From positions 32,001-96,000 of the IMG/VR virus record IMGVR_UViG_2907202186_000003: a stretch of DNA of 64,000 bases, one strand, 5' to 3'. Below, piece by piece: positions 3,455 through 60,138 of the stretch. The position numbers were made by a program, and so were the translations under genes. Each line of letters starts with the position of its first letter. Positions within the stretch are counted from its first letter, which is position 1. Under the pieces are notes generated by a model. That model was not told the origin of the DNA. It searched no databases and saw nothing but the letters and a program-made list of their open reading frames with translations. Origin of the DNA: a virus. Its lineage: Duplodnaviria > Caudoviricetes.

Positions 3455-3539
3455 CTACCTTAAGACAAGTTTATCAAAGGTAGGTACTGCTGTTTAGAGG
3501 TAAGTTATGTATGCTTTCTTGATGAAACTGAACTTTCAT

Positions 3540-3917
3540 CTGATTTACGTCCACTTTATGTATTCATCTCTTGGCACTTCGCGTAGCACTACGCATTTTT
3601 TTGCAAGTACTTTTTCCTTTTCTTTGATACAAAAATCATCAAATGAAATCTTAACTTCTAACAGAGAACCATTTTTCCAGTAATCCGATCTATCAATTTC
3701 TTCTTTTTGATTGAAATATAAATATTCATTTCTTGGTACGGCTTCGCACTATGAGTTTTGAGAGATTTATTTCAACCTCATCGACTAGGTCATGGTTTTC
3801 TATGTATTCAGTTAAGTTATCACTGTAGGCTTTTTTAACAACATCGTCTCCAAATAGCTTTTTAACGCACTGATCAATCATATCGTTATTCAACTCCACA
3901 ACCCCTTTCTTGATCAA
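3540..3917 (-). pseudogene. Possibly frameshifted hypothetical gene
   Basis: 63-aa ORF stops at 3726 while a protein-like frame (NEYLYFNQKEEIDRSDYWKNG...) continues toward the next junction repeat. Confidence 0.3.
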
Positions 3918-4613
3918 AGTAAACTTTTATTTAGTTTATTTTGACGCTTTTAATCCATCGTGGATCTCACGAAGCTCTTTGATGGCAGATTTAATCTTTC
4001 GTTTATCTACATCTTCATGATAGTATTTTATGTCACCTAGAAGATGTTCCTTGAGTTGTTCGTCTGTCATTTCAAAAAGCTCTAATCCACTCCATTCATC
4101 AGACCAGATTGAGCCAATACATTGACGGTCTTCAGGAGTTGGATATGTAATGTCGCTCATTTCTTCGTCATAATAAAATTCCCAATACTTGTACTTTTTA
4201 TTGATTTTCATCGTATACCTCCAATTCTTCATAAAAGAAAGATTTCATTAAGTCTTAACTGTGTTAACATTATCTGAACCATTTAAATGCCCGATGATTT
4301 CGCCAACAAGCACGATCCTGCCTTGATTATCATAATCAAATTCATATCGAGTTGTGCAATCTGGACATCTTAGATACTCTTCGAGAATGTATTTATCCTC
4401 GACAGTTTTTCTAAGTCTCTTTTCAACCCTGTGTCCTTCGTTGCTGATTTTAAATTGTTCACGATAAAAATATTCCTGGGTAAAAACTAGGTCAGAACCA
4501 CATTCACAATTTGGCTTTTGATACACCTCTACTGCCTCCATATCTTATAAAAAAATTTCGTTTAGTTCTCTCGATATTATTTAAGATTTCTTTGGAGCCG
4601 TCAGTTCTCCATG

Positions 4614-5393
4614 TTACCTCTTAAATAACCGTTTGACTGTTTTTTCTAAATAATAGAAACCGATTATTCCCAAAATCAATAGAGATGCTAATCTCCAAAT
4701 AAGTATTAAATTCATATTATACAAACTCAAAGAAGTGCTTACATCGAACATAATATGTGTTATGATAACTGTCCATATATTTTTTGTAATAATGAATAAC
4801 AATCCAAAACATAGTCCTAATATCATTAAAGTTATAGTGATATTATAATCAAACCAGCCCACAGTATAGTTAAAAGTATGTAGCCATCCAAACAAGAACG
4901 AGCTTAGAATAACTGCTATAGTCAAGATAACATTTCTCTTTAAGGCTAGACTTGAAAGCATTAGACAAATAACATTAATTGCAGCAAACCTCCAGATCTC
5001 TTCACTTCCGGCTAAAAAATCAGAAATTAAATCCAAAAACAACTCATTAGAATTTATTGCTGATGGCAGTTCTTGAGGGTTCTGATCTTTTATAATGTAA
5101 CTGGTAACGAAGTTAACAATTACATTAAATAGCACAGGAACAGAAAAAGGAATGATTACATAGTTAAATAACTTTTGTTTTGCTGTTGTCTTTCCAATAT
5201 AAATATGAGCCTTCTGGAATAATACAGAGAAATAAAGACATGTAAAAAAGATACAATAATACACGTTTGAGAAATCTATAAACCGTTCTCTAATGATTAT
5301 ATATATGGGTAGTGACAAAAATATTAGAAGATTGACTATTAAATTCTTGCGGTTCAAGAAAATATCGGTAATAAGATTCATTTTTTTCTCCAA
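4614..5393 (-). CDS. CPBP (CAAX protease/Abi) family intramembrane metalloprotease
   Basis: Multi-TM protein with EEIWR, FGWLH and HIMFD motifs. Confidence 0.85.
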   Translation of the reverse strand: MEKKMNLITDIFLNRKNLIVNLLIFLSLPIYIIIRERFIDFSNVYYCIFFTCLYFSVLFQKAHIYIGKTTAKQKLFNYVIIPFSVPVLFNVIVNFVTSYIIKDQNPQELPSAINSNELFLDLISDFLAGSEEIWRFAAINVICLMLSSLALKRNVILTIAVILSSFLFGWLHTFNYTVGWFDYNITITLMILGLCFGLLFIITKNIWTVIITHIMFDVSTSLSLYNMNLILIWRLASLLILGIIGFYYLEKTVKRLFKR

Positions 5394-5424
5394 TCAGTAA
5401 AGATAAGATGAACGTTTCATGTAA

Positions 5425-5979
5425 TCACAGATATTCAATCCTAAGCAGGATTTCTTCTCTACTTAGTTTTAAATGATTAAGAAGTTTCTCGCCATCTTTA
5501 TTTAACCATCCCTGTTGCCTTGCATCTTCTCTAAGTATTATCTCTTTCGTTAATCTGGACTCTAATGAATTAAGCCAGCACTCTGTGTTTTTGCGTCCCA
5601 TATTTCCAAGAACATTTTTATCCGCTTCCATCTCATAAGGACTCACTAGGCCTATCTTAACTCTATCTAATCGTCCCTCAGAGGTAAATGGGTGATTATT
5701 AATAACATGACCAAGTTCATGATAAAGCGAACACCAGTCCAAAACCAAATTGTTTGAAGTACATAAGAATACTAATCCTTTAGTAGCAAAATCCGGTCTA
5801 TCCTTTGATGTATAACCCTGATTTTCAAAATTCGTACAGAATGAGTGTCCTCGCTTACTATAATTAATTACTGGAGTTTCTTTGAATAAAAAATAGTCAA
5901 ATTTAATTTCATTCCCCTCTTCATTAACTATAGAGAATTGCTGATTAAACACCATTTCTTGCACCATTAGACACCTCAT
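5425..5979 (-). CDS. ImmA/IrrE-like Zn metallopeptidase
   Basis: HELGH followed by EMEAD. Confidence 0.65.
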   Translation of the reverse strand: MRCLMVQEMVFNQQFSIVNEEGNEIKFDYFLFKETPVINYSKRGHSFCTNFENQGYTSKDRPDFATKGLVFLCTSNNLVLDWCSLYHELGHVINNHPFTSEGRLDRVKIGLVSPYEMEADKNVLGNMGRKNTECWLNSLESRLTKEIILREDARQQGWLNKDGEKLLNHLKLSREEILLRIEYL

Positions 5980-6018
5980 AGCTTATAAAATATTTGTTTC
6001 ATCATGTATCAATTATAT

Positions 6019-6972: not shown

Positions 6973-9798
6973 TATTTACTCTGTATCATAACTTATTAAG
7001 TCGTTGGGAACCAGTTTAAGAAAACCAGCCGTAGTTTCACACAACGATAATCCATTATCGTATTCATATATCACATGAACTCTGGTGTATCGTTCAAGTT
7101 CCTCTATTTTATTATTTAAAAATCCATCCTTATTTAGATTCTTATTTTCATCTAAGTATTTTCCGATTTTTAATTGTTGCTCTCTATAATCAACAAATTT
7201 ACCTAGCAATTCATCGGCCTTGTTAACACCTAATTCTTTTTCAAGTTTAAAATATAGTTCGTTTTCAATTTCATGATATTTCTTTATGATATTAAAAATA
7301 ATTTTATCCATATGTATCCCTCTCCTAACATAATAATGAAAGTCATATTTTATAGGGTTATGCTGTTTTTTAATTGCAAAAAACATTCATCGCAAAAGTT
7401 AACTTTAGCCTGTGTTCCAACTAAGACTATTACCTCGTCATAGGGAAACTGAAGTCTTTTTTGATCCTCAGTTAACTTCCCCCTTTTGTAAAAATTACAA
7501 CTTCCCTCTTCTTTTACCGATGATCTGAATAAATCCATATTGCACTCCTTTCTAAATCAAACTCACATTTCATTCTGTATCATATATCCGGTTTATATGA
7601 TGACACTCTGCACATTCATAATCATTAAACTCGCCTTTCTCATCTTCCCCACTACCAACAATATCAACATACTCATTATCAAAACACTCTTCACATTGAA
7701 ATCTCATTTCTTTCGCCACCTTGTTTCTTTATAAAAGATTCGTTTTATTTCCACACTTTTTCTCTTATGTTCTCAGCAATTTGATATAGCTCTTCTTCTT
7801 CATCTTTATCGTCTCTTTCGAAGTTAATATTGCCGTAATCAAAGTGGATTCTAAGCATCTCTAACTCTTTTTCTGTGAAGTAAATTGTTTTACCTGCCAT
7901 TATTATTGCCAACCTTCCAGATGTTTTAACATACTGTAATTCGCTCTGCAAAATAAATTCCTATTTGCCCGTCTTCAAACTCTAGAGTAACATTGCCTAC
8001 ATTCTCGTCTAATTCAGTAACTAATCCTTCTTTATGTGCCCAGGTTCCCATTATCGGCCTTGCAGTAACCCCTAGTCCAATTACTCTCCCATTGCAATCC
8101 CGCAACTTCAATATTTATCCCCCCATCATCAGCTCAGATTATAATATTCTCGATCAACTCGACATTCGTTATCACAAATTGTCCAGCTTTCTCCAGGCTT
8201 AAGCGTTCAATATCACCCTCGTGTATCGTACCAATAAAATCCTCTAGCTGTCGTGATCCTTTCATTCTTTTTAGATCTGTTTGTGCTAATTGTCTAACCA
8301 ATTCAATATTATTGTAACGATCCTCCTTTGCATCTTTTAGAATTATATCCTTATGACTCATAACCTTATTAATCCTAATTGTTTCAGTCGTACTGTAGTT
8401 CTCGTTATTGCTTAATTTGTAATCAATTCTATATACCTGGTTGATTAAAATATCTACTCTATCTTTCATTCTTCTAGTTCTAAAAAAATCGTCATTGGCG
8501 TTTACTCTTACAATTTTAAGGTTTTCTGATCTTTTATCCCAGCTAATCCATCCATATCTTTCACTCGTGTCAAAATAACAACTCAGCGCTTCATCAATTG
8601 AATCAAATAATATAGCTTCGCTTAGGGCACATTTTATGACAGTGCCTCCGATTGAGCCTCTTTTTATGTATTTTCCATCGAGCACTCTCACTGCATATTT
8701 TACTATTATAATCACCTCGCTCTGCATAAAAGGCTAATTTTATGTACCACTACTATTTAAAGAAAATTACTTTTGTGCATCTTACTTGATATCCCTTTTG
8801 AGTAAATCAAACTTTCAAAAATCTTAATTGCGATTTCCGGTTCATATGGAGGCTGCTGAACATTGTCAACATAAGTATCACGAAAATCATCATCTTCAAC
8901 AACACCTAACTCATTGAACCAGTTTTCAATAATATCTTCATGTTTTGATGCCATCTTTCTATACTTGGCTGCTTTTCTTAGTGCATCCCTAATTTCTATT
9001 GGAACTTTTGTTTTCATGTATCTTCCCCGCTTTCATCTAAATACTCCTCACAATACATCTGCAATTCAGTTAGCCTCTTATATCGTTTCCATCTTCATCA
9101 ACTTGTTTGCTGCCTCCTCCAAACTCCCATCCATTAGCCTCTACAAATTCAATAAACTTATCGAGAAACTCGTCATGATTAACGTCTCCCTCAGTAGCAA
9201 AAATTGCTCCACTAATCTCAATGCCTTTTTTCATTATGTTCTCTCCCCTCAGAATAAAAGACTCATTTCATGTAACTTTGTTTAAAATTCCATGGGGAAT
9301 TTTGTAAACAAAAAATGAACTCCCCATAGAATTGTTCCTTCTATTACTCTTCACCTTTGTTGCGTAATATATAGCTACCTTGTTCCAATTTCAAACTTTC
9401 AATGGAACCATAGGGTGAAAAGTATGATTCTACGGTCGTTCCATCTTCAAAGTCAATCTCCCCTTGCCAAGTTCCATACAACGAAGCTACTCTGTTTAAA
9501 TTAATTATAGCTTCAATCCCCTTGTCCTTAGTATCCACTCCAGGTACACTTATTGAGGTACCATTTAATTCAGTTTTATTGAATTGAAAAGGAATCAATA
9601 GTTTACATACATCTTTATAACTGTTCGTAATTACTGTGAATTTTTTAGATGTATTAACTACTCCCTTACCCTCAAAATTGAATACATAGTTAATTGTTCC
9701 AACACCAATTAAACTTTTAACCTTAGTTTCCCCAATTAGTTCTTCAATCTCCAAAAATTTAGCCATCTACGATCTCTCCTCATAAAAGAATTGTTTGA

Positions 9799-10365
9799 TT
9801 AAGAAATAAATACTTTCGAGAAAATTACATTGTTTACTGTATCATCCATAGTAGCAACATGCTCAATAGTATTCTTTTGCGCTTCAATAACTTTGTCCAA
9901 GTTGGGAATATACATATCAGATAACTCTGATTCGATGTATTTAAAAGCGTAAGGTTTATTTGATCCTATTGCAGAGATACAATCGTTACTGATTAGTTCG
10001 AGAGATTCAAGTTGCTTTTTGGGTGTTCTTAGCTGACAAATCTTAAGAATCCCTTTGCTTCTACCTCCCCATAGCAATATAAATGGATGGTTTTGATATA
10101 TAATCTTATTGGCTGTTCTCAGAATTATTTTACTTGCTTCATCCACATAATCTGATTTATTGAGTGTTTTATATTTTTGATCCAAGGTCATGGCAACATC
10201 ATCGAATATCGCTTTGCTTCCCCATGCAGAAAAGAATAAATTGTCCTCATAGGATTTTATTTTATTGAAATTTTCATCTTCAATATTATTAAACCGGTCT
10301 ACAATTCTTCCGTCAGACATTACAGAAATAAATTGGTTGCAAGCAACTACGGTTATTAGGCTCAT
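9799..10365 (-). CDS. Hypothetical protein, possible Ntn-hydrolase (proteasome-beta-like) fold
   Basis: N-terminus M-S-L-I-T-V-V...SDGR resembles the T/S-first beta strand and ADxR motif; SAIGS near the C-terminus. Confidence 0.35.
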   Translation of the reverse strand: MSLITVVACNQFISVMSDGRIVDRFNNIEDENFNKIKSYEDNLFFSAWGSKAIFDDVAMTLDQKYKTLNKSDYVDEASKIILRTANKIIYQNHPFILLWGGRSKGILKICQLRTPKKQLESLELISNDCISAIGSNKPYAFKYIESELSDMYIPNLDKVIEAQKNTIEHVATMDDTVNNVIFSKVFIS

Positions 10366-10738
10366 TATTTATCCCTTTCTTATAAAAGTATTATTTCATC
10401 AGATTTACTTATCCTCTAAATGGTTTCCTTAGTGTATTTCTGTTCAAAAAATCAATCACTTCTCTTTTCTTCATGATAAAAACCTTATTATAATTTACTA
10501 AGCAACTTGAACAATAGGGCTGATTATTTGAATTGAAGAGAGGTTTTGCATTTTGATTTGAACAGTTAGGACATTCATAAATAACCCCTAAAACTGTACG
10601 CTTATTCTTATCCCAGTCTTTTGGAGTGCGATATTTTGTCATCTCTTCCCCACCTCATATGATTTCATTTAACAGCGACTCATCTGTTATTATTCGACAT
10701 TAATTATGTATTCACCTTCCGGATAATCCCTTGAATCA

Positions 10739-36960: not shown

Positions 36961-36974
36961 TGTTTACCCACCTT

Positions 36975-46589: not shown

Positions 46590-46673
46590 CATTAATGCCC
46601 TCCTAGCTGTCGAATTCAGTACGCAAGAGTTGAAATGGCGACCTAAACGTTTCTGTTTGATCGCCAAGAAAAT

Positions 46674-47033
46674 TTAATTATTATTCAATCTTTCTGTGAT
46701 TTCTTTTATCTTTGAACGAGCAACATTGAGCTGTTCGCCATCTTTAAAAATAACCATTCCGTTAGCCTCATCAACATATTTCACTTGTTCAAGATTAATC
46801 ATAAGATCTCTATCGGCCTGTAGAAACCCTTTTTCAGCGGAATAATACTCTGCCAAATCTTGAAACGTAGCAACCTGACTATATCTGGCTCCGTTTGTGG
46901 TTGTATATACGGGTACTTTTTGACCCTTAATTATTTTTATTGAAACATGACTCACATCTTCAAGTTTGAAATCTTCAATCGATCCTGTATCATGATTATA
47001 TCCGACCAATTCATTTGTTGTCATCGATGTCAC
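46674..47033 (-). CDS. Second stand-alone LytTR protein
   Basis: GFLQADRDLMINLEQV...F.DG..LNVAR. Confidence 0.78.
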   Translation of the reverse strand: MTSMTTNELVGYNHDTGSIEDFKLEDVSHVSIKIIKGQKVPVYTTTNGARYSQVATFQDLAEYYSAEKGFLQADRDLMINLEQVKYVDEANGMVIFKDGEQLNVARSKIKEITERLNNN

Positions 47034-47952: not shown

Positions 47953-48453
47953 TTGATGAAAGCCATATTAATTATTGTTGTATTATTCATAGTTTGTGCA
48001 CTGATACTCATTAAAATGAGGTCAAAAGGTCAAGAAAAAATCAACGATTATTCTAATAATCAATCAAAAGACCAAACCAGGAGTTTCTCCGGAGCTCTAA
48101 ATGATGTAAGAAACGGAACATCTGAATTTGCTCCAGAAGCTATTAGGGGAATTGAGAAAATTAAGACTGTGCTTATGACTGATGAAGAAATTATTCACTC
48201 AGGTTATGGAAAAGATGGCTTTAAAAACGTAGTTTATGCTGTGACAAACAAACGATTTATAGCCTGTTATGTTGGAGTTACTTCCGAACAACTCACTTCC
48301 ATTAATTATAATAAGATTACAAATGTAGATATTAAAAACAAACTTAATTTATCATATGTTGTAATTCAAACAAGCGAGAAAGCAGTAGAGATTCTTGTCC
48401 AGAACAAACCAAGATCAGTTGAGTTTTTCAATTCAATAAATAGTTATACTTAA
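47953..48453 (+). CDS. Membrane-anchored bacterial PH-domain protein
   Basis: N-terminal TM; DEEII...AVTNKRFI...INYNKITNV. Confidence 0.7.
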   Translation: MMKAILIIVVLFIVCALILIKMRSKGQEKINDYSNNQSKDQTRSFSGALNDVRNGTSEFAPEAIRGIEKIKTVLMTDEEIIHSGYGKDGFKNVVYAVTNKRFIACYVGVTSEQLTSINYNKITNVDIKNKLNLSYVVIQTSEKAVEILVQNKPRSVEFFNSINSYT

Positions 48454-49467
48454 TAATATTTTGGGTGAGGTCTTATTGATCTCACCTTTCTTTATAAAAG
48501 AATCCTTTTATACAGACTTTCTCAATTGTCTTTGGCAAAACTGCATCGCCTCGAACAATGTTTCTGTGTCTGCTGTAACATTCTGATAACCAAAGACTTT
48601 TTCATTCACATTGTTACTTGGTAAATCACTGTATACAAATAAAAAACCCCTTACAATCTTCCCCTTTCCTTCACCACAATTGTCATCAGAAACAACCATG
48701 ATATTATATTTACCAACAGGAATGATTAAACTTGCTTCAGCACCATCAGCATTACTTGCAATGATTCGGCCACCCAGTTTGATATTTTCCATTGAACTAA
48801 TCTCCTCATAAAATATTCATATTTAAACTTCAATTATCATAGCATCTTCGTTCTGCGACACTTTACTATTTAAGCGAACATCTCTTATGCTCCATGCTAT
48901 AAATAACAATTTGATCGCCTGTCATTGACCTTGATCTATATCGAATGCCTAAACATTTAACTTTTCTTCCATCCTGAGTTTGACTCAATTTGTTGTTTTG
49001 ATACTCTTGTTTTGTAAGGTTTTCATTGCATTTAGGGCAAAGCAATTCAAACGCTTCTTCAACATGCTCTGCCATGTAGTCATCTTCTAATTGTTCCTCA
49101 TGGGTTCTTAGACTAAATTCTGTAAAGTTTGCTTTCGCATACAGAATGTCATTCAAAATCACCACCTCCTGTTTTGCGGTATTTTGTCTACTGTACTTAA
49201 TAAATCCTCATAAAATAATCTTTTTATTCAAACTTACTATCTCTAATTAAGACATAAATAAAATCCCTTACTTCTGTATCATCCCATCCCCACTCATCTG
49301 CCAGATCTTTTATCCTATCTGGAATCAAGTTAATAATGGCAGTTATTTGTGCTTCATCGGGAGCAATATTGTTAATATCAATATAGCTGCTTCGAATTTG
49401 ATCTTTTAATTCCCAAGTTCCATCCATATTATTCAATCCTCATTTCTACGTAAAATATTCATTTTAA

Positions 49468-49542
49468 TGCCAACTACAGGAATTGAACCTGTCATCGCAC
49501 CAATTTATGCTTTTGTAGTCATCACCAAAGACTCTAGCTGGC
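49468..49542 (-). ncRNA. tRNA-like element / pseudo-tRNA with degenerate anticodon arm
   Basis: GCCAGCT/AGTTGGC-A acceptor stem, AGTC-TTTGGTGAT-GACT D arm, ACAGG-TTCAATT-CCTGT T arm, 75 nt. Confidence 0.65.
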
Positions 49543-51401
49543 TATCTAATTATTACTTTAATTAGTTCTTACTCTGTTCACGGAAGAATAATTGCTCATA
49601 TGCATCCGTTACTGCATCAACTGGATTATCGTATTGTTTTGATATCGCGCGTTCACGACTCTCAATCTGTTCCAGCATACACTTATACAAACCAACAGTA
49701 TGCAAATAGAGAATGTAATCATCTCCCTGAATATTTACAATGGAGACTTGAACCTTATTGTTGTTGATTTCACTCATCGATAGCATATCCTCACCTCCTC
49801 TCAGTGGTTATGGATGAAAGGATTATTTAATTACAAATTCTATTTCCTTATATTCAAACTTATCACCATGTCTTGAATCATAGAACTTTTCCCAAGCTAG
49901 CAGATCCTCTTCTTTTTCTGTTTCACTAAATACCATTGATTCAATTAAGTTGTCAGTATATTCACCGACTTTTCCAATCCATACATTTCCTTCTACACTC
50001 TGGATGCTGCACCACTTAATAAATTTATCTCCAACTTTGATTACATATCTGCTCACTATGTATCACTCCCCATGAAAGGATCATTTCATCAATACTTCAA
50101 TGCTTTTCCCTTGCCTATGGTCAATTTCCATGCAAGTAAACATCCTTCTTCAAGTTCTTGTTTGTCAGTAAAACACATATCACACTGCCCGTTTCTAAAA
50201 ATCTCGCACTGTCTCTCAACAATGTTATGAAGAGTTTTTCTTTTGATAATTCTAGCAGCAGTTCCCTTAATATATCGTTCCTCGGTGTAAACTGTTATGT
50301 ATTCTGGATCATTTTGCAGCTCTAAAGTACTTCTTTGTGGTTTAACTGTTTTTTCAAACCGTGCGGCGAACATGTAAACACGATTATTAAAGTCATCATT
50401 TACGTACACAGCCCTCATTGGAGCAGTTACATTTGTATCTTCCTCAATCTGATACACTTTATTAAGTGTCAGATTGTCTGTGGCTGCTGTGCATTTTCCC
50501 CACCATTTATCTCCTTTTAATTGTTCTCTCTCCCATCTTTGTCAATTTTCGCTCCAGCTCTAATATAAACTTCCAAGTTTCTCGGAATCTTAAACTGATT
50601 ACGATCAAATATTGGCATTTGTTCTTCCGGAATAGAGCCACCAGACACATGAAATACTTCTCCATTCCATTGTCTAACGAAACCCCAGAATCCATAATAA
50701 GGTGATTCTTTATCAATAATTTCAATCAGTTTACCTATTGAATTTTCAGGCTTCATTTAAAAACAACTCCTCATGAAAAGATCCTATGATTTAGTCTTGA
50801 TCCAGCGGATCAATACGGTTTTCATAGCAGTAAGATTCTCAATTCCTTAGTAAAAGATCATTTTAAAGGAAACTTTGTGTATAGTTCCTCTCTAAACTCG
50901 TCATTTTCGATTAGGTAAAATTCGTCAATGATACTTCCTTGATCGTCCCAGATTTTCATTTTCCAATCGTGCAGTATTTCAACAGAAGTTCCATAGTATT
51001 TAGTCAACGAATCAAATTTAAACTTTACTTCATTATATTGTGTACTTTCTTCGGTAACATCAATCCAATCAGACTCTAAAACATGAATACCGAACAATAT
51101 CATAAAAAATCACTCCTCATTAAAATATAGTTTCATCAACTTAAATTGCTACAAGTTGGATGTTGGCTTTTTCTCCAGGAATAATAACCAAATCACCGTC
51201 TTCCTCACACATCTGTTTAAACAATATCATTTGTTCGTATTTCGGAAAAGTATATGTATTCATTACTAGTTTACCTAGTACCTTTTCAACAACAGCGATT
51301 TTATACATTTCAATATCACCTCTTTGTTTTGTTAGTTAAATTATACCATATGATTTTATATTATGTCTATATTTATTTTGTTAAATATAAAGGAATAAAC
51401 A

Positions 51402-52037
51402 TCATCCTTTATATTCTGTATCGCTATTCAAAATAGGATCGAAATATTTTTCCTCGGCTCGTTTACGAGCTTTTATAGCATCTTCCTTTTCGGAAAAATA
51501 CCCTAGAGATATTTGTTTCCCCTTAAATCCAATGTGTGCCGTCCATTTTTGACGGGATTCATTCCATCGTACACCCTTGTGTCCACTTTTATTGCCTTTA
51601 TGGAGCTTTGCCTTCAAAGCGGTTTTCCTCGTCCCATCCACACGGTCAGTTTTTTCATGCTCTCTTGCACCTATATCACGTTTTTCCTCTCTATTACACC
51701 CACAACTCTTATAATACCCAGCCCGCAGGCTGGCCCCGAGAACATATATAACTTCCCCACACTTGCAACGACATTCCCAAAGCCTTGTTCCGTTTGCCCC
51801 TCTTTTGTCGCTTAGTCGGATAACCTTCAAATCACCAAAATCCATGTCAGACAAGTCTTTCATTCTTGATGTGGTCCTATGGCTGCCATATTCCAATTCA
51901 GCGTCTTTTCGCGCTTGTACGGCGTCCTCGACATCAGTGAAATAGCCTAAATATTTTCGTTTTTTATTTACAAATATATAAGCACGATACTTGCCTTTGC
52001 GGCTGTCATAACTAACGTCTTTGTGATCATCTATCAT
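51402..52037 (-). CDS. AP2-domain DNA-binding protein
   Basis: Two AP2 repeats (KYRAYI...LGYF...AVQARK and KWTAHI...LGYF...AIKARK) flanking CRCKCG/SCGC. Confidence 0.8.
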   Translation of the reverse strand: MIDDHKDVSYDSRKGKYRAYIFVNKKRKYLGYFTDVEDAVQARKDAELEYGSHRTTSRMKDLSDMDFGDLKVIRLSDKRGANGTRLWECRCKCGEVIYVLGASLRAGYYKSCGCNREEKRDIGAREHEKTDRVDGTRKTALKAKLHKGNKSGHKGVRWNESRQKWTAHIGFKGKQISLGYFSEKEDAIKARKRAEEKYFDPILNSDTEYKG

Positions 52038-52246
52038 TTTCCTACCTCAAATCGGCTTGCGAACCAAAGCGGAGTTAAATTACCTGTCCGCCCCTTGATT
52101 ACAGCATCTGGCCGTGAAAACCGCTTTTCCTTACCGCGGTAAGATGGATTCAACATCGCCTTAGCTGTCTTACTTACATTTTGCTGAGTGGTACCGATAT
52201 GTTCAGCAACCCACTCAGCTCCAACGTATTCAAGGGGCGGTGTTAC
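52034..52246 (-). CDS. Small HTH protein (Aca-like), not in the ORF track; GTA at the presumed start
   Basis: Frame VTPPLEYVGAEWVAEHIGTTQQNVSK...PDAVI...PLWF; overlaps the upstream stop and the downstream ATG. Confidence 0.55.
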   Translation of the reverse strand, partial: VTPPLEYVGAEWVAEHIGTTQQNVSKTAKAMLNPSYRGKEKRFSRPDAVIKGRTGNLTPLWFASRFEVGK

Positions 52247-52497
52247 TTTACCAGTGTCACGCCTATTGGATTATACCAGTCACACATTTCTGACTCATCA
52301 GTGATTTCTTCGTACTCATCATAAACATCCCACACCAGAATATATTCGTTATTTTCTGCATCAACAGCGGTTGCTTTGTAGTGGGGGCGTTCGCCGGAAA
52401 CTCCATCAATATATGGGTCCTGTGTGGTCTTCAAGGTTTTCCCTTCAAAATCAATCACCGTCGAGTTAAACTCGTTCAGATCGCTAAAAGTTTTCAC
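52243..52497 (-). CDS. Small acidic protein, candidate anti-CRISPR
   Basis: GTG start after AGGAGG; D/E-rich (DEYEEITDESEMCDW); next to an HTH gene and the CRISPR repeat. Confidence 0.45.
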   Translation of the reverse strand: MKTFSDLNEFNSTVIDFEGKTLKTTQDPYIDGVSGERPHYKATAVDAENNEYILVWDVYDEYEEITDESEMCDWYNPIGVTLVK

Positions 52498-52552
52498 TAA
52501 ATTTTTCCTCCTTGACATCATATTTAATATGATTTAATTTAAAAATGTAAGT

Positions 52553-52584
52553 GTCGCACCCCGTGCGAGTGCGTGGATTGAAAT
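52553..52584 (+). CRISPR. Solitary type I-C CRISPR repeat (SRU/Racr-like), not an array
   Basis: GTCGCACCCCGTGCGAGTGCGTGGATTGAAAT, 32 bp; TTGACA-17-TAATTT upstream (52512-52540); terminator at 52607-52627. Confidence 0.88.
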
Positions 52585-52657
52585 ATTCTTATAGTATTTC
52601 AGCAGGAGGCCCTTTACGGGGCCTTTTGTGTTACCATCCCGATGATGCCCTCTTAAT

Positions 52658-53059
52658 TTAAAATAGTTGCGCAATCACGAGAGCGTCCTTTATTACAATC
52701 TCTCCGTGATCAGGATCGTCATGGCGTCCCAGGCGCTTACTGGCGATTATGTAACAATGATCGGTACCAAAAATTTGGTCGCGCGCCTTTTCAGCTGCGA
52801 AGGAAGAATATTCGTAAGTCTGGCTGATTGACATGTCCCAGGCGGATGTACCGTTAAGAAGTTCCATCTCCTCGTATTCCTCTGTCCCGTATTTAGGGAA
52901 CTCCCTTTCATCTTCGCGATCAGCGTTATGGCGGCTGTATTCGCATTCCTCACCGATCGCGCGTTCCTTGTTTTCAAAACGAAGTCCGATAAAATAGAAT
53001 TCATTCTCATTGGCGACGTAGATTTCTTTAGCCTCCGCGTACATTTCTGCGACTGTCAT
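52658..53059 (-). CDS. Acidic protein, candidate anti-CRISPR
   Basis: Start MTVAEM after GGAGG; E/D-rich; first gene after a palindrome-containing promoter. Confidence 0.45.
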   Translation of the reverse strand: MTVAEMYAEAKEIYVANENEFYFIGLRFENKERAIGEECEYSRHNADREDEREFPKYGTEEYEEMELLNGTSAWDMSISQTYEYSSFAAEKARDQIFGTDHCYIIASKRLGRHDDPDHGEIVIKDALVIAQLF

Positions 53060-53108
53060 CTTAATTCCTCCTTCATATATTTTTCCGTGATTCCTTGTTG
53101 TTGGTTTT

Positions 53109-53141
53109 ATTATATCACACAAGGTTGTGCTACACAACCTT
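53109..53141 (-). promoter_or_regulatory. Promoter with a perfect inverted-repeat operator
   Basis: TTGTGT-17-TATAAT with extended -10 TG; AAGGTTGTG-CTA-CACAACCTT overlaps the -35. Confidence 0.75.
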
Positions 53142-53558
53142 TTCTTGAAAATATTATAATTTCCATACACAAATAACTCCAAGCAACAAAACTAACTCGC
53201 TTGGAGTTTGATAAAATTAATCTTTCATTAAGAAAGACAACCCCGAAAATAAGATTGTCTTTGCAATATAAATTATTCAGTTTCAGTCCAGTACATGATT
53301 TTCACATGATTTGGAGTGGTTTTTTCTAACCTCACAATCTGTTCTTTTACATAATCATGTACTTCTCTCTCTTCTCCATTTGGAACATCGTAAATGCTTG
53401 CTCTTTTGTTGTGCTGTACTCTGTCAACAAATAGAATGTAATCAACTTCGAGTGTCATGATTGCCAGCCCCTCTATATGTAATTATTTTCCTGTTATATC
53501 TTTACGCTTGTCGGAGTCAAAGTTTACTAGCCGAGAGATTGTTATCAAAAAAATAAAG

Positions 53559-54053
53559 TTAGGAGTTACTTTTTAGTTTTACCTTATATTTTTCAGCTAG
53601 TTCTTTTACTTTATCCTGATATTCTCGCATCATCTTCCTTGCCTCTGAAAGCTTCTCATTCGCTTCAGTAATAGTCTTTATATCCTGTTCTTCTAGAGCA
53701 TAAGCGATTGTTGTTAAAGCTGAATTCTGACGATTTAATCCGTCTATATAAATATTATGTACTTCTCGTAACTCTTTTGATTCAATTTTAACACTTTCAA
53801 CTTTTCCAGTGAACTCGTTATAACCAGGTATTACTTTGTCCACCAAAACGTTGTAGGTTGTTTCGTCATCCGTAAAATTTGCTCCTGTTACACTTTCATA
53901 GGTATTAACTAACTCCTGTTCTTCAGTAAACAGAGGAACCATTTGTTCGTTAATATAAGACAGTAATTCTTCTGTTACCGGGTCAGTTTTGCTACACCCC
54001 ATTAGAACATTAAAGAGCAACATAGTGCTGATAAGAATTATTAACTTTTTCAA
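53559..54053 (-). CDS. Lipoprotein
   Basis: Lipobox LMG-C; helical body. Confidence 0.75.
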   Translation of the reverse strand: MKKLIILISTMLLFNVLMGCSKTDPVTEELLSYINEQMVPLFTEEQELVNTYESVTGANFTDDETTYNVLVDKVIPGYNEFTGKVESVKIESKELREVHNIYIDGLNRQNSALTTIAYALEEQDIKTITEANEKLSEARKMMREYQDKVKELAEKYKVKLKSNS

Positions 54054-57000
54054 AAGAAAACCTCCTAGTCTTAAATACCTTTTATCTTGTAGATTATAAT
54101 GGAAAATAGTTCAAAAGCAATAGGGTATTTGGAACTAATTACATCTAATTCATTTCACAACTCTTCTTATTTTTCATGAAATAACTGTTTTATCCAACTT
54201 TATCTTCTATTACCTGACAGACTGTGTGTGTAAGTACTAAAAATGTTAATGTAAATAATAAAAACGGAAAACTATTGTGCCATCCTTCTTGAAATACACA
54301 CTGTGTATCTAATACTCCAAAAACAAAACAAGCGATACCAAATAATACAAGTCTACATTTAGATAATTTCTCCATTGTCCATATCTCCTTTTTGTAAAAT
54401 TCTGCTTTTAACAGCTTCCTAATTAATAACTCCAACTAATTTTGATCAAAAATCATGCAGTACTCACAATCATCAAAAATGGCCTTTTCAATTTCTTTAT
54501 TGGTTGCATCCTCCCAAACAGTTACCTTCCCGTTATATGTACCAATTGGCCTGACACTAATTGTATATTCGACTTCCTTGATTTTTCTTTGTTCGCTGTA
54601 CGCTTTCTCTGCTGCTATAAGATTCTCAATAGCTTCATCAAACTCAGCTCTAGTTCGATTATTGTTTGTTGTTCCTGCAATACATGCCTTTTGATTAACA
54701 ATGGATTGCAATTTCTCAATATCTTTTCTTGTGATCATTTCTCTTTCTCACCTCTTATAAAATACTGTTTTTATTGGAAGTACATTTCCTCGATTTTACG
54801 TTTAAATCGCGCTAAATTATTTTTTGCTTGTTGGTATGATCCATTCAAACCCTTCAACTCCAACGAATCAATTTGAGCACCAAATTGATTAAACACCGTT
54901 ACCGATAAATCAAAATCTCCAAAAAACTTATGATTTTCATTAAATATATTTTCTTTCCCTACTATTTCTGCCTGAGCTTTATAGTTGTTATTGCTTAAAT
55001 ACTCCAGCGAACAATTTTTTATATCAAGTTTCTCAGTTGCCCATTCCATCTTTACCACTCCTTATAAAATCGTTGTTTCACTTAGATTCCTTAAATACCT
55101 GGTCATAATTTCCTTCAACATCTACTAAATGCAAATATGAATAAATCTGTGCAACAATATCTTTAATCTCTTTTCTTTGTCGTAGAACAAAGTTACGGTA
55201 CAATTCATCTTTTAATAGTTCTTCTCCCACCAGACCGGAGAGCATCTCAATTTTACTTGTGATATCTGCAATCTCATTTCCCATTGCCTTCACTTTATTT
55301 CTTGCATATCCTGTAAAGTGGATCTCTTTTTCAATGCTTTCCAATTGATCTCGATTCATTTAGTTAACTCCTTATATTATGTATTTTTATTAAATAACCG
55401 TTTTAATAATGATAAGCCCCCATAAACCGATGCACAGTGAATACAAGATTGCATTTTCAAACGTTAGATGCTTCATAATTCTCATGTGATTTCCTCCACC
55501 TAATCTATAAAGCGTTGCTGTTCTTTATCATGTGAAAGTAACCTTTCATACAGAGAATTCATATCGTTCACATATAAATCGAGTAAAAAATTTAAATAGA
55601 TAAACTCCTCAATGGATGCAATTTGCTGGTCTATTGCATCCATGATCTCATCAGGTAAAAGCGCAGGAAGCAATATACTGGAGGTTTCCTGCGCTTACCT
55701 GATAATTAACGTATGTACATTTTATATCGCTCTCTCTATGCATTGTTGTGGTCTCATAAACTCTACCAAAAACATGATCCAGTATTATTATATGTTACCT
55801 GATGAATTCCTTTTGTTTTAAGGAAAGCCTCCAATTTACTATAAAATTCATTTGAGGGATTAAGAACGAAACTGCTAACAAACGCATTATCAGTTATGCC
55901 TATATCAACTTTAAATCCGTTTCGTCTTAGCTTAATTATTGATCCCATGTTTTTAAGCGTTTGATTAAATTCATTTATATATTCTTCAGTAATTTCACTC
56001 ATCAAACTTCCACTCCTTTTTAATATGAATCGATTTTCAGGATACCATCTCTTAAAGTTGTAGTAAAGACGAATAGGAGAATTATATCCCCTATTCTAAT
56101 CCGCACTTATCACAAAATTCATCCCATGCCTTATCATATTTCTTACTTCCCGATCTACCTCCAAACTCTTTAGACCACATGTCTGCTACAATTTGAAATT
56201 GTCTATCAGTTAGGTCTTCGATTTCTTTCATGAATAACTCTTGTGCTATGCTGTAGCAAAATCCCTTTTCCTGTATTCTTATTTCGATACCACTTGGTGG
56301 ATAATATCGCTTATTGTCTTTATCCATCAGATAATCGATAAGCCATCCGTTTTTCTCATAATAGTACTCGCGCGTTTTCTGTTCTTCTGTTTCTCTTGCC
56401 TCAATTTGTGCGTGTCTGTCTGCCTTAAACTTTATGTATTCGTCAACATTTCTTTTGTTTCCCATTTCCCAAACTTTGATGCCTGACACAATCTGCACAC
56501 ATTCGCTACCATATGGCTTACCTTGATACTCGAAAATGTTCTTGATACCTTGACCACATCTCGTACAATTAGAAATGATTCCTGTTTCCATTTTTGACCG
56601 CCTCCGTGTTTTAACTTATAACTAATTATAACACGGGTTATGCATTTACACAATAATATGTTTATATTTATTTTATTGTTTTTACTTAAAATAAGCATTT
56701 CATCGTGTTTTATAAACCTTATGTATCACTGTTGGAATTCTCTATTAGAATTTCACAAGCACTATCAAATACAATTTCTTTCGACAACTGATATCGCTCT
56801 TTATTCTTCTCATAATGCACTACAAACATAGGATAAAGTTGCAATTCACTACAACCTTCTTTCATGAGTCTCATCTTTAATACTTTTAGATGAGTTCTTA
56901 AATGCTCAACAGTTTTTATCTCCAAGTTAACCACACCTTATTACATTTATTTTATTTACTGCTATAACCAGAAGAACGAATTATGCTTTCAATCGAATTT

Positions 57001-58760
57001 ATATTGTTTCTCTCTAAAATAATGTTTCTTACCCAATTCGGCCTATTTAATTTATTTTTATAAAAGGCTTTTTGGAATACCTTTATGTTTCCTTCGCCCG
57101 TAAATATGGCAATTTTACAAGGTGTATTTTGCATTGCTTTTATTGTTCCTTCATAAATCTTAAATAATTTCATTTTTATTTCTCCTATAATTAATAACTA
57201 CCATTCTCTACCGTTTCTGACCGCTTCTAAATTTTCTTTTGCGTGGTTAATGTATTCTTCTTTTCGAGAATCATTTCCATAAGCACTAACTACCTTTTCC
57301 AATTGTTTTTCATAATACTTAATTAGCTCTTCTCTTGTTTTCATTTTTTCATTCCCCCTCTAATTTGTTGGTGAAACAAGCGTTACTTAGATACTTTTTA
57401 CTCTAGATCCCTTCAACCTCAATTACTCTATCAATCATTTCTTCCAGGTCCAAGACAGACTTTTCATTAACTTTAATTTGATTTTTATATACTTCAATTG
57501 TGCATTTTTCTGTAAGTATTGTTGCTGTAGGTGCAATTACAAATGTTGTACTGTCTCCTGCTACTTCGTGACCATAACCATATGTATTCAATTTCTCGCT
57601 GATTGAGTTGACCAGTTTTTCAATGCTCTTCATCGGTATCACTTCCTTATAATTTGTATAATTACTTTATTAAATGTTATATCTAAGTGGATAGATTTTT
57701 TCCTTCCTGTGGCAATATACATAAATAGTATTATTGTGAAATCCTATTGTTTCCATTTTTGTCCCAGCGATATGAAAAATGAAACCTTTCTCCGTTATGT
57801 TTTTCATCTTTTGTCCCCTCCAGTTTAGTTGAAACAAGAATTTTATCAATTGTCGATCATTTGCAGATTATTTCTTGTAATAAAAGCTTTAACTTCTGAA
57901 ACACCCCAAGCTTCTTTTCCCCAATCTTTTATATTTTCACTTTCAAAATTCTCTACTCTATTAAATTCAACCGAAACTCCTTCTTCAATGAGTTTATCAA
58001 GGCACGAAGAATGTCTGTATGTCTCCATTTGATAAAATTCTTTATGCTCATCTTCGATAAGTAGACCTTTTTTTTCTATAAAGCAGAGTTTGATTTTTTT
58101 CTGCTCTAATTCTGATAATACATCTTTAAAATCCACAATAATCTTTTTATTTTTCATTTCTTATTCCTCCGTGTTCTATGAAATCACTCTTTCACTTACT
58201 GTTTTAGAAGGACACATACTATTTTATATGTGTCCACAACTTACCCGAGTTCTTACTTTGACATTTCTTGCAAACATGTGCACCATCAGGTGGTAAATCT
58301 AATGGATCACCTTGAAGCAAATTAGGTCTATCAAGATTGTAACTTTGACAAGATGGATATCTATTATTCTCGATTTCAAATCCAATTTTATGCCACGTTC
58401 CTGTTTTTGATTGCATCCACTTTTTAAGTCCAGCAGATTCCTCAATTGCTTTACTTGTATTTTTATTTTCTTTTTTTGCTTCTATATTTTGACGTTTGAG
58501 TAAATCTTGTTTCGCTCTGTTCAGATCACGCTGCAGTATGCCAATTTCAACTGCTGCTTTTCTTTCTTCAGAACCTGCAGGAAATGTTGCCCAGCACTCT
58601 AAAGGGTCAGCTCCTAAATTTTTTAGAGTTTCAACTTGTACTAAGATTTTCGATTCATATCTTTCAACCTTTTTAACGGCTGCCTCAAGTTTGTTCACTT
58701 TGTCAACCCTCCATAATCGGATAAAATGAGTATTTCTTTTAACGATTTAGTTATATTATT

Positions 58761-58789
58761 ATTATATTTACTTTATAATAAAATGTCAA
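58761..58789 (-). promoter_or_regulatory. Consensus SigA early promoter with ATAAAGTAAATATA motif
   Basis: TTGACA-17-TATAAT. Confidence 0.8.
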
Positions 58790-58818
58790 GCCTTTGTTTT
58801 CTTTTTTTAAAGCGAAAT

Positions 58819-59286
58819 TCAAGTAAAATATTGATAATCAAATTCAATATTTAGCTCAATTTGCTCTATTGTCGGCTCCCAATATATTAAATTACCTTGA
58901 TCTTTATAATAAGCTACGTTGTTTTTTATAAAGAATGTCTTATTCGAATAAAATCCACAATTTCTCATATCCTCCAATAAATATTTTAAATCGTTACAGT
59001 CATCATTGAACAATAAACCATTTATATAGTTATAGTATTTAGCAAGATTATAAATTAATATCTCGTCTAAGCAGAATTCTAGATTTGGATGAAGTAAAAC
59101 CTTATTCAAATTTATAAAAATTGTATCCTCTTCAAAAATCACATAACTATATCTATATTTCATTTTATTAGGAATGAATATTTTTCCTTTATATTCAAGA
59201 CTACATATCTTCTTTGCGAGAAATTTAGTCTTTCTTTCTAACATTGGAATGGAATTATCATCTTTCGAGAGTAATGTTTGAATCAA
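58819..59286 (-). CDS. SprT-like protein with degenerate metal site
   Basis: IFINL...LDEILIYNLAKYY in place of ILxHELxHY. Confidence 0.4.
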   Translation of the reverse strand: MIQTLLSKDDNSIPMLERKTKFLAKKICSLEYKGKIFIPNKMKYRYSYVIFEEDTIFINLNKVLLHPNLEFCLDEILIYNLAKYYNYINGLLFNDDCNDLKYLLEDMRNCGFYSNKTFFIKNNVAYYKDQGNLIYWEPTIEQIELNIEFDYQYFT

Positions 59287-59367
59287 AATATTCTCTCCTT
59301 TTATTAAAGATTTTACTTAGTGTTCAAATATACAATGTTACTAATTGTACCATTGTATATTTGTCTT

Positions 59368-59449
59368 GCCACCTAACCGCTCAATGTCAGCGGTTAACGC
59401 TCTAGGCTTAAGGCTCAATCCCGATATGTCGGGAACCGCCTAGACGGTT
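59368..59449 (-). ncRNA. Pistol self-cleaving ribozyme
   Basis: P1 AACCG/CGGUU with loop UCUAGG; P2 GCC/GGC; UUAAG-CCUAGA-GCG pseudoknot strand; P3 UUAACCGCU/AGCGGUUAG; G-U cleavage site. Confidence 0.88.
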
Positions 59450-60138
59450 TATTATACATTCTGTTTTAGTAACAGATAGTTATAACTTGCTAATTCATTA
59501 AGGTCAATTCCCTTTGATTCAATTAAATTTTTGATCTGTTCTTTAAAGGTATTCAGTCCAGTGATTCGGTCTTCTTTATTTGCAATTTCTTCGGTGTTTT
59601 GGATTTCTTGTATCGCAAAGCTAATATCGATCATAAATCTATATAATTCTACTGGAGTACCTTTTAATTTAACCTCTAATTCAATATTAGTTTCAAAATC
59701 ATTTTTCATTGTAATTACCTCCATTTTTTAGTCATATCATACCACTAATATGCAACATCAGTAATAATGAAATGAGGATTTCAATCTGATTTAATTCAAG
59801 TATTAAACCTTAGCTGCTAACGTTAACATTTCATTAAACACTATTAGATTGCTATATGCCTCAATTGGATCGATGTCTCTCCATTGTGATATTCCTTTTG
59901 TCATCTCTTTAATAAGTTCCAAGCCTCTATTATTTACGTTTATGTAATTTCCTTCAGGATAGCGTTTAGAAATTAGCTTTCGGACTTCTTCCTCTCTTTC
60001 CTGATTGAATAACTTCTGTACTTCGTTATCCTTTAAAACTGCCTTTTGTGTTTTACTTCTTCATTGTAAGATTTTAAAGCCTTCCTTTTTCCCGTTCTAT
60101 TCATACAATCGCCTCCTATGTATTGACTTTATATTTTT

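Follow-up and report, generated by a model that had tools for sequence, protein, structure and literature searches.

Several described systems come close to the element reported here, an 18-bp inverted repeat (ATRAAA-N6-TTTYAT) that recurs at gene boundaries in a 64,000-nucleotide stretch of a Caudoviricetes phage (IMG/VR record IMGVR_UViG_2907202186_000003, positions 32,001 to 96,000). This whole stretch, hereafter the window, corresponds to G000:C11:196723-260722 of a 6.6-Mb Paenibacillus genome and lies in an SPbeta-like prophage. Each copy, termed a junction site, has two six-base arms and a six-base centre. With moderate confidence, we favour the reading that these 18-mers are position-addressed crossover joints of the prophage.

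Promoter-early stem-loops (PeSLs) of T4-type phages (Arbiol et al. 2010, PMC2839356) come nearest among published ideas. PeSLs too are short repeats between the small accessory genes of hyperplastic regions, and insertions, deletions and replacements among related phages map to them. Unlike the junction sites, a PeSL is described as a sigma-70 promoter plus a terminator with homology-driven exchange; the junction site, by comparison, is a dyad of 18 bp whose centre is position-specific. Gene gain, loss and replacement mapped to junction sites in the SPbeta family and in Paenibacillus prophages. A PeSL-type promoter and terminator were not enriched in the 42-60 kb part of the window (promoter-like 81 vs. 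79, terminator-like 7 vs. 6.5).

Heterospecific lox and FRT sites, as used in Cre and FLP cassette exchange, share with the junction sites inverted arms around an asymmetric overlap of 6-8 bp. Recombination there requires identical overlaps; when the overlaps within a molecule differ, deletion is prevented and slot-wise exchange becomes possible. The junction sites parallel this with centres that match between exchanging genomes and are unique and asymmetric within one. These sites are an engineering design with arms of about 13 bp, compared with about 6 bp here, and the recombinases of the junction sites are candidates only. We know of no natural genome with about 90 ordered heterospecific sites. 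The pdif/dif sites of Acinetobacter plasmids have a 6-bp centre between A-rich and T-rich inner arms (...ATAA-N6-TTAT... in dif) and flank small mobile modules. Xer/dif sites have 11-bp XerC and XerD arms, whereas in the junction sites nothing was kept beyond 6 bp apart from the Shine-Dalgarno sequence, and to our knowledge pdif centres are neither position-coded nor collinear between replicons.

The SPBRE is a dispersed SPbeta repeat bound by MrpR, a protein with a tyrosine-recombinase fold and no recombinase activity (Kohm et al. 2023, PMC10516654). It resembles the junction sites as a dispersed intergenic repeat of SPbeta-like phages bound by a protein of this fold, and differs in sequence and in its promoter location; SPbeta carries both elements. 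Stoperators of cluster A mycobacteriophages likewise occupy the small gene gaps of one phage genome by the dozen. They are asymmetric 13-mers that follow one consensus, point along the direction of transcription and serve as targets of the immunity repressor, and unlike the junction sites they have no variable, position-conserved centre. The attC sites of integrons stand at the 3' end of cassette ORFs (open reading frames), are recombined by a tyrosine recombinase and form arrays. They are long (57-141 bp) folded single-strand structures that travel with the cassette and need IntI and attI, whereas junction sites stay fixed and genes move. No published description of the junction motif was found by full-text searches, nor in the SPbeta review (PMC8270828) or the MrpR paper (PMC10516654); older works, including the 1999 SPbeta genome paper, lay largely outside these searches, and the absence is no proof.

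Occurrence of the palindrome

A first-pass annotation of the window had listed 47 copies of the palindrome. The exact pattern occurred 22 times against 0.28 expected from dinucleotide-preserving shuffles (largest value 2), and with at most one mismatch it occurred 55 times against 6.28 (largest value 14), so the repeat is real and enriched. A symmetric position weight matrix (PWM) built from the window sites and scored in bits gave 53 sites at 12 bits or more (2.05 expected) and 41 at 14 bits or more (0.15 expected). All 47 listed positions were recovered, the one at 51119 by the one-mismatch pattern only.

Over the whole 6.6-Mb genome, 79 matches reached at least 14 bits; contig C11 accounted for 66, every one of them within 160-300 kb. 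This region is an SPbeta-like prophage of about 140 kb and about 34% G+C, flanked by DNA of about 50% G+C in a genome whose host contigs have 47-53% G+C. The whole prophage contained 92 sites. Few sites were present in two parts of the window, 10.4-18.7 kb and 31.3-42 kb, roughly as the first-pass annotation had described. The late region of the prophage was also poor in sites, with 7 of 81 (at least 12 bits) beyond C11:265 kb.

Position relative to genes

Read along the coding strand, the upstream ORF ended first, the 18-mer came next, and after two or three further bases an extended Shine-Dalgarno sequence of the AGAAAGGAGG type preceded the start codon. Nearly all genes around the sites were on the minus strand. 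An upstream ORF ended within -12 to +60 nt of the site in 47 cases; its stop codon coincided with motif positions 2-4 (TRA) in 15 of the 47 and ended on motif position 1 in 9, giving 24 of 47 whose stop codon lay within the left arm or had its last base there. In all, that reading frame was the one used by 31 of the 47. The R at motif position 3 is explained by this double use of the left arm as a TRA stop codon. The arms thus had an invariant inner part (AAA...TTT) and outer bases that doubled as the upstream stop codon. The gap between site and start codon was 14-31 nt in 34 of 44 cases. Some sites followed a stop codon without a following gene, for example those at 53211, 31231 and 40111. 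The expected placement at gene boundaries, near the upstream stop and before the ribosome-binding site (RBS), was confirmed and was more regular than had been claimed.

The steady distance to the Shine-Dalgarno sequence and the start codon would fit an RNA element, a 6-bp A/U stem with a 6-nt loop that would be processed, would couple translation or would offer its loop to a partner RNA; base pairing is, in principle, a way in which conserved loops might be recognised. Against this, the variable arm positions showed no base-pair covariation: 16 Watson-Crick pairs were counted at positions (3,16) against 21.7 expected and 17 at positions (7,12) against 19.4. Such a stem would be very weak, and A.C mismatches were present on the coding strand at positions 3/16 in 11 of 52 sites. 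The symmetry reached positions 7 and 12 (T27/G15/C10/A3 vs. A26/C19/G8/T2), where it was of the reverse-complement kind without pairing. No Rfam family matched at the sites, several of which have no following gene. Compensatory changes keeping a stem were not seen, pairing at the variable positions being at or below chance. Dyad symmetry without covariation argues for a double-stranded DNA site for a symmetric protein and not for an RNA hairpin, and we regard an RNA element as very improbable.

Conservation of the centres in Paenibacillus prophages

Relatives were found through the MrpR-like protein of the window (37069-38076, minus strand; Pfam MrpR_N_CB 1.6e-28, MrpR_C_cat 8.9e-17), a member of a repressor family with the tyrosine-recombinase fold, and ten Paenibacillus loci were retrieved, among them L018, L025, L026 and L027. 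G062 and G063 were whole related Paenibacillus prophages. When close relatives of the window phage were sought, the phage collection gave only a match of 77% identity over 180 bp. Sixty related genomes contained no long DNA match to it, and a 330-aa cassette protein had no match in the viral contigs.

Exact matches to centres of window sites were found at 6 of 11 sites in L018, 11 of 17 in L025, 8 of 12 in L026 and 3 of 4 in L027, against null means of 0.07-0.28. The matched centres had the same order, and most 40-nt flanks were at chance identity. Outer arm positions 1, 3, 16 and 18 at matched sites were only 50-61% identical, and conservation of the centre hence exceeded that of some arm positions. 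At the sites, distant partners had no more than 12-14 bp of uninterrupted identity.

The whole prophages gave the same picture. Among the 92 prophage sites, 37 had their centre in common with G062 and 38 with G063 (null 4.5; maxima 12 and 13), and the matching centres formed collinear chains of 32 and 34 sites, respectively. Since the divergence was too high in this lineage, the intervals between consecutive matching centres were compared at the protein level. Protein homology (E <1e-5) was absent from 20 of 31 intervals in G062 and 23 of 33 in G063; intervals with homology had a mean amino-acid identity of 37-76%, and long core-gene blocks 40-59%. In the window, 37 of 60 sites had their centre in at least one relative. 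This comparison shows that the position-specific centre of each site outlasts the surrounding genes. The centre had been taken for a variable spacer; it does differ between copies within a genome, but it is not free, being kept between genomes at equivalent positions.

The coordinates of the window sites are given below with the centre on the coding strand and the PWM score; all are on the minus strand unless stated. Centres common to G062 and G063 were those at 7556-7573 (TGTGAG, 16.0 bits), 19748-19765 (TGCGTG, 17.3 bits), 20604-20621 (GGCACG, 17.5 bits; this address and the following one are in exchanged order compared with both prophages), 20916-20933 (GGTCTA, 18.4 bits), 25422-25439 (TAGAAA, 13.7 bits), 31231-31248 (GACAGA, 12.9 bits), 42717-42734 (TGCAAG, 18.0 bits), 43023-43040 (GGCATG, 19.1 bits) and 57829-57846 (TTCTTG, 14.7 bits). 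The weak site at 26504-26521 (TGAGAA, 11.3 bits) nonetheless had its centre in both. The same centre was found in L018 as well for the sites at 27178-27195 (TGAAAC, 16.6 bits), 48494-48511 (GGATTC, 19.9 bits), 49210-49227 (AGATTA, 17.1 bits) and 50072-50089 (TGATCC, 21.7 bits), and in L027 for 44919-44936 (TAACTA, 12.8 bits). Two further centres common to both prophages, at 44292-44309 (TGACTG, 13.0 bits) and 47444-47461 (TAAGTC, 16.1 bits; 18/18 identical to L026:428), were also present in a relic on contig C1 of the host genome.

Centres in common with G062 were located at 5985-6002 (CAAATA, 18.1 bits), 7336-7353 (TATGAC, 18.2 bits), 24625-24642 (TGTAAA, 12.6 bits), 25177-25194 (GAGGAC, 19.6 bits), 42096-42113 (TGTAGA, 13.9 bits), 47839-47856 (GAAGTA, 13.6 bits), 49450-49467 (TGAATA, 13.4 bits; also in L018), 54757-54774 (ACAGTA, 15.8 bits), 55064-55081 (CAACGA, 14.7 bits) and, as a weak site, 58721-58738 (TACTCA, 11.9 bits). 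Centres in common with G063 were located at 3913-3930 (GTTTAC, 15.0 bits), 4231-4248 (TCTTTC, 17.9 bits), 7731-7748 (CGAATC, 18.5 bits), 10382-10399 (TAATAC, 18.9 bits; off the collinear chain), 43510-43527 (TGGCTA, 13.5 bits), 46315-46332 (GGTTTA, 18.5 bits), 53211-53228 (GATTAA, 18.2 bits; followed by a terminator-like hairpin and not by a gene start), 54176-54193 (CAGTTA, 17.8 bits) and 58178-58195 (GAGTGA, 16.7 bits).

The centre at 29252-29269 (CTAGGA, 13.7 bits) was present in L018, with a right flank identical at 37 of 40 positions and a left flank at 12 of 40, near chance. Syntenic centres one base off were found for 29605-29622 (CCTGTA, 15.0 bits; GCTGTA in L025, CATGTA in L018), and syntenic TAATAG or GAATAA stood in relatives for 34389-34406 (TAATAA, 15.0 bits). 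Further sites were those at 3522-3539 (GTTCAG, 17.6 bits), 5403-5420 (CGTTCA, 14.1 bits), 8726-8743 (TTAGCC, 19.0 bits), 9254-9271 (TGAGTC, 20.0 bits), 9782-9799 (CAATTC, 16.1 bits), 19499-19516 (TACATA, 16.5 bits), 21631-21648 (GGGTTG, 18.8 bits), 22846-22863 (CATAAC, 15.3 bits), 25678-25695 (TTGTAA, 18.0 bits), 40111-40128 (TTGGCA, 15.7 bits), 54394-54411 (GCAGAA, 12.1 bits), 55532-55549 (GGTTAC, 18.4 bits), 56686-56703 (TGCTTA, 16.1 bits) and 59767-59784 (TCCTCA, 16.3 bits). A weak site was found at 25901-25918 (TCGTGA, 12.5 bits) and another at 51119-51136 (ATTAAA...TTTCAT, one mismatch to the pattern, <11 bits). The site at 18715-18732 (GGAATC, 19.9 bits), with no strand assigned, lay 40 nt upstream of a plus-strand gene (18773-19456). 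The match at 14391-14408 (13.3 bits, no strand assigned), within a 794-aa plus-strand ORF and with no ORF end nearby, is probably a chance match outside the array.

Some ORFs occupied different slots in different phages. The 172-aa ORF at 43527-44045 (minus strand) was 89.5% identical to the ORF at L018:2886-3404, which stood between TGAATA and AGATTA in L018 and between TGACTG and TGGCTA in the window; the homology started at the ATG and stopped in the left arm of the downstream site. These results bear on the integron-like gene capture first proposed, in which an attC-like site would move with its gene and be captured by an integron-type integrase. The layout of site, RBS and ORF does resemble a cassette array, attC too can hold stop codons, and the sites do bound exchangeable genes. 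The sites did not travel with the genes, however: they kept a fixed order while the genes between them changed, and the same ORF was found between different addresses. They are 18 bp long and not folded attC sites of 57-141 bp, and no IntI-type integrase, attI or Pc was recognised in the prophage. The movement of a site with its cassette ORF was not observed, the centres being collinear and the ORFs replaced. An integron-like system is thus hardly credible.

Three side observations were made in this lineage. At window 19748-20933 (C11:216470-217655), two addresses were permuted relative to both related prophages: the plus-strand order was CACGCA, CGTGCC, TAGACC here and CACGCA, TAGACC, CGTGCC in G062 and G063. 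At C1:1466200-1467800 of the same genome (G000), outside the window, a 1.6-kb chromosomal relic of low G+C content carried two junction sites whose plus-strand centres, CAGTCA and GACTTA, are the addresses at window 44292 and 47444. The DNA between them was 86% identical to window 46330-47049 and was followed by 104 bp with 89% identity to the prophage end beside the integrase; the relic resembles what is left of a second, related prophage. In the MrpR region, L018 from Paenibacillus sp. XY044 (genome G061) was more similar than any other relative, at 79% identity. No YomM homolog was found in the G061 genome (best E 4.8e-4), and the L018 prophage may be a remnant.

Breakpoints and sites in the SPbeta family and other phages

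About 20 kb of SPbeta (81-102 kb of the record) was compared with the syntenic DNA of Goe13, phi3T, SPbetaL4 and SPR. In SPbeta the motif read ATAAAA-N6-TTTTAW and stood between stop codon and RBS at many yop, yoq, yor, yos and yot junctions. The window PWM gave 16 matches of at least 14 bits in SPbeta against 1.4 expected, and de novo counting found TAAAA-N6-TTTTA 34 times against a shuffle maximum of 8.

Pairwise homology breakpoints lay within 12 nt of a site centre in 46 of 185 cases, compared with 1.4% for random positions, in agreement with the claim that the sites bound exchangeable accessory genes. In SPbeta, a breakpoint was present at 10 of 10 junctions with a site and at 10 of 31 without one (7 of 17 for site-less junctions of at least 39 nt); breakpoints unrelated to the sites, which would have spoken against that claim, were thus not what this family showed. 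Alignments from the left mostly reached the right edge of the site and those from the right mostly began at its left edge, and the 18-mer itself was therefore common to both partners. The centre AGACTG was found with three different left flanks and four different right flanks. GATGCA, GTAAAA, TGTAAG, TATTTA, GATAGT, ACGATA and TGATAA were likewise each part of one 18-mer with different neighbours, and the order of centres was identical along the five genomes.

Arm variants followed the adjacent flank: TTTCAT was found with flank R1, TTTTAT with R11 or R17, and TTAAAA with L27, L25 or L29. The exchange point therefore lay inside the core, from about position 2 to about position 15, and it could be mapped to this 12-15-bp core only. 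These comparisons show that the sites are points at which related phages exchanged neighbouring DNA, and that the two flanks of a site were exchanged independently of each other, the crossover falling within AAA-N6-TTT.

Two anti-defence genes of the SPbeta family, gad1 and gad2, are found at one and the same locus in different phages (bioRxiv 10.1101/2023.05.01.538930). In SPbetaL4 a site was located at position 14380 of the locus, just upstream of gad1 (from 14432).

In five other phages WTRAAA-N6-TTTYAW was counted against a reversed-pattern control. It occurred 36 times in Geobacillus virus E3 (control 2), 36 times in Mammaliicoccus phage phi127 (control 5), 26 times in Bacillus phage Tsamsa (control 1), 17 times in the Staphylococcus phage SPbeta-like (control 4) and 3 times in Lactococcus phage P1048 (control 0), where no palindrome stood out in a de novo 5-N(4-8)-5 count either. 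Tsamsa (29 sites) and Kirov (28 sites), which belong to different virus subfamilies, had 8 collinear centres in common (null 0.6, maximum 4). SPbeta and the Paenibacillus prophage had no centres in common beyond chance (2 vs. 1.3), so the addresses were lineage-specific and the arms clade-wide.

Differences among the centres of one genome

The centres were compared with a null of position-specific composition in three Paenibacillus prophages, which are not independent, as about 40% of their centres are common. Exact duplicates numbered 0, 0 and 0 per prophage against 3.6, 2.6 and 2.6 expected, pairs one mismatch apart 28, 19 and 21 against 49, 36 and 36, and reverse-complement duplicates 1, 0 and 0 against 2.9, 2.2 and 2.2. 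Palindromic centres numbered 0, 0 and 1 against 2.5, 2.1 and 2.0 (1 vs. 6.6 summed). Unique, asymmetric centres are expected if identical centres recombine, because direct repeats would delete the DNA between them, and inverted repeats or palindromic centres would invert DNA or join genomes head to head.

Neighbouring centres were more alike than chance (mean Hamming distance 3.59 vs. 4.18 +/- 0.12), and 20 adjacent pairs differed at no more than two positions against 6.1 expected. This likeness suggests local site duplication followed by divergence as the source of slots, and new slots probably arise in this way. One candidate duplication was TGATCC/TAATCC: the sites at 50072 and 49814 enclose a 77-aa ORF that relatives lack, and the centre at 49814-49831 (TAATCC, 16.0 bits), one base from its neighbour, was absent from relatives.

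The inverted arms might alternatively form a stoperator-like operator array, on which a dimeric phage or host protein, bound at most junctions of early genes, would silence or time transcription, the breakpoints being a by-product of sequence conservation at gene borders. The 6-N6-6 dyad is the classic geometry of a dimeric helix-turn-helix operator, and site density was high in the early arrays of small genes and low in the late region. A similar spread is shown by cluster A stoperators. The stoperator alternative in the first-pass annotation could apply to the arms, but it cannot explain centres that are conserved by position, mutually distinct and non-palindromic. The centre, which an operator protein would contact least, was better kept than outer arm positions 1, 3, 16 and 18 (about 0.5-0.6), and collinear centres across phages with differing genes are left unexplained as well. 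In addition, chromatin affinity purification sequencing (ChAP-seq) of MrpR in SPbeta gave ten peaks, all at the SPBRE and none reported at the junction motif (PMC10516654). We therefore consider an operator array improbable.

The SPBRE was re-derived from the upstream regions of the ten SPbeta genes under these peaks. It was obtained as approximately ACAAATACAAAAAATATGTATAT, embedded in the promoter, at 10 of 10 upstream regions; its common motif AAAAATATGTATAT, with ACAAATACA on the left, had no likeness to ATRAAA-N6-TTTYAT. The window contained one SPBRE match with one mismatch and three with two mismatches, none at a junction site. An identity of the junction motif with the SPBRE/MrpR operator was rejected, the latter being a different, promoter-embedded sequence. 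None of the known boxes of host factors (CodY, ComK, Xer/dif) appears to fit the motif.

The main rival is short-homology recombination at the joints without a dedicated recombinase. The 12-18 identical bases would be the sole sequence common to unrelated cassettes, the annealing machinery of the phage (Sak4-like protein, RecJ- or SbcD-like nucleases) would cross over there, as proposed for the PeSLs of T4, and the arms would be kept for some other role, for example as a multi-frame translational stop, an insulator or a protein-binding site. A gene for a Sak4-like single-strand annealing protein is present in the window (31261-32259, minus strand; Pfam AAA_24 3.2e-35, annotated as Sak4-like in relatives). 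An exchange point in a 12-15-bp core fits either mechanism, duplicates and palindromes should also be avoided if identity is all that exchange requires, and the TRA stops of the arms are used by upstream ORFs at the frequencies given above. However, 12-14 bp of uninterrupted identity is very short for annealing-based exchange. Homology does not need the strict arm symmetry, which includes positions 7 and 12, is kept across Bacillus, Geobacillus, Paenibacillus and Staphylococcus phages and points to a bound dimer; a role as stop codon needs no inverted right arm. We judge the short-homology explanation to be unlikely, though it has to be taken seriously.

Candidate recombinases and neighbouring genes

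The prophage carries genes for three tyrosine recombinases in addition to the MrpR-like protein. The first, an arm-binding integrase (C11:301699-302835), is at the prophage end. The second, a YopP-like recombinase (C11:264435-265505, outside the window), was 28% identical to SPbeta YopP (E 2e-33). Aligned to XerD, it showed the full R-K-H-R-H-Y set; IntI4 was a weak third match (E 7.5e-4) behind XerD. The third, a YomM-like recombinase (C11:284059-285108, L032:6059-7108, also outside the window), was 61% identical to SPbeta YomM and had R-K-H-K-H-Y, with Lys replacing the second catalytic Arg. Its gene was flanked by junction sites at C11:284055 and 285114. The YomM-like gene was directly upstream of the tape-measure gene in the Staphylococcus phage SPbeta-like, Mammaliicoccus phi127 and Kirov, and in Tsamsa and Lactococcus P1048 directly upstream of an unnamed ORF of very large size (9.4-9.8 kb). 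Among the phages checked, the exception was Geobacillus virus E3, in which a small ORF comes next.

Homologs of the YopP-like and YomM-like proteins were present in every array-bearing phage tested and also in array-less P1048. These two proteins are the candidate enzymes of site exchange. Proteins found in the array phages and lacking in P1048 included the MrpR-like protein, an SbcD/Mre11-like exonuclease, a Macro-domain protein, a 3D-domain protein, phrog_3314 and phrog_4051; as P1048 is a single negative control, this does not single out a binding protein.

A further gene (L031:7930-10521, plus strand; G000:C11:265930-268521) is oriented divergently from the YopP-like and RecD2-like genes. 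It encodes an 863-aa protein with a weak match to an RNA-dependent RNA polymerase family (E 3.9e-6) and is probably the counterpart of the SPbeta YonO RNA polymerase.

Within the window, a lysogeny-type module was located at 34521-41232 (minus strand). It comprised a PemK/MazF-like toxin (40816-41232), a DndB-like YopQ homolog (38106-39422) and the MrpR homolog, followed by a 216-aa protein without a Pfam match, AgrB (35763-36317), a 41-aa ORF kept in relatives and a LytTR-domain protein (35205-35591). None of the scanned ORFs looked AimR-like.

A Pistol ribozyme was found at window 59367-59434 (minus strand; Rfam score 38.8 bits vs. gathering threshold 34.5, full model covered); in the early transcript it comes directly behind the ORF at 59452-59724. 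At about 52545-52600 the window contained a single stretch resembling a CRISPR repeat. A DNA search of related genomes with window 42000-60000 found long tandem arrays in G033, G040, G014, G030 and G059, with 90-97% identity over about 32-37 bases, which fits the solitary repeat remarked on earlier in this phage.

Discussion

The PWM and the symmetry analysis gave two inverted arms around an asymmetric 6-bp centre, the geometry of a tyrosine-recombinase core site, as the first-pass annotation had recognised. Matching overlaps and exchange between the arms, which also characterise such core sites, were found in comparative data. On this basis the junction sites are probably core sites of a phage tyrosine recombinase. 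A dimeric phage protein would bind the generic inverted arms, and strands would be exchanged across the 6-bp centre, which would be the overlap region. Two sites would recombine only if their centres match, and exchange between co-resident or co-infecting relatives would be limited to equivalent positions. The requirement for matching centres would thereby keep gene order and genome length, and the sites of one genome would not delete or invert the DNA between them. A search for sequencing runs in which circles or deletions between sites might appear listed none.

Several results weigh against the crossover-joint reading. The arms, at about 6 bp with nothing kept beyond, are shorter than the 11-13-bp arms of Xer, Cre and FLP sites, and the YopP-like and YomM-like enzymes are candidates only. 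Lactococcus phage P1048 has homologs of both (30-33% identity) and no palindrome array; these proteins are therefore not sufficient or not the agents. In the Paenibacillus lineage, nucleotide-level breakpoints were enriched at sites only weakly, 2-5 times (3-7% vs. 1.3-1.8%), because divergence blurs breakpoints. In the SPbeta family, the mean identity jump across sites with homology on both sides was 0.051 against 0.033 (n=16, p=0.23), an underpowered comparison. ORFs found in different slots, with homology confined to the stretch from ATG to stop, indicate that matched-site exchange was not the sole process. Conservation of the centres through compatibility with a common gene pool would be second-order selection, the strength of which is unproven.

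We put forward tentatively, as a reading about which we have somewhat more doubt than confidence, that SPbeta-like and related large Bacillales siphoviruses possess natural, genome-wide heterospecific recombination sites. These would amount to natural cassette exchange, in which one phage recombinase that reads the generic arms serves up to about 90 overlap addresses, genes are swapped slot by slot between any two related genomes with gene order kept, and accessory genes, those for anti-defence among them, pass from phage to phage by way of the fixed slots. If a recombinase reads the sites, dozens of orthogonal recombination sites would be available. Genetically tractable B. subtilis phages, namely SPbeta, phi3T and those of the Goe and SPbetaL series, have such sites as well. 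Why the mosaic boundaries of phage genomes fall at gene borders is a long-standing question, for which random illegitimate recombination with selection and dedicated linkers have been the two answers. The junction sites provide a concrete, testable case for dedicated joints with conserved positional addresses.

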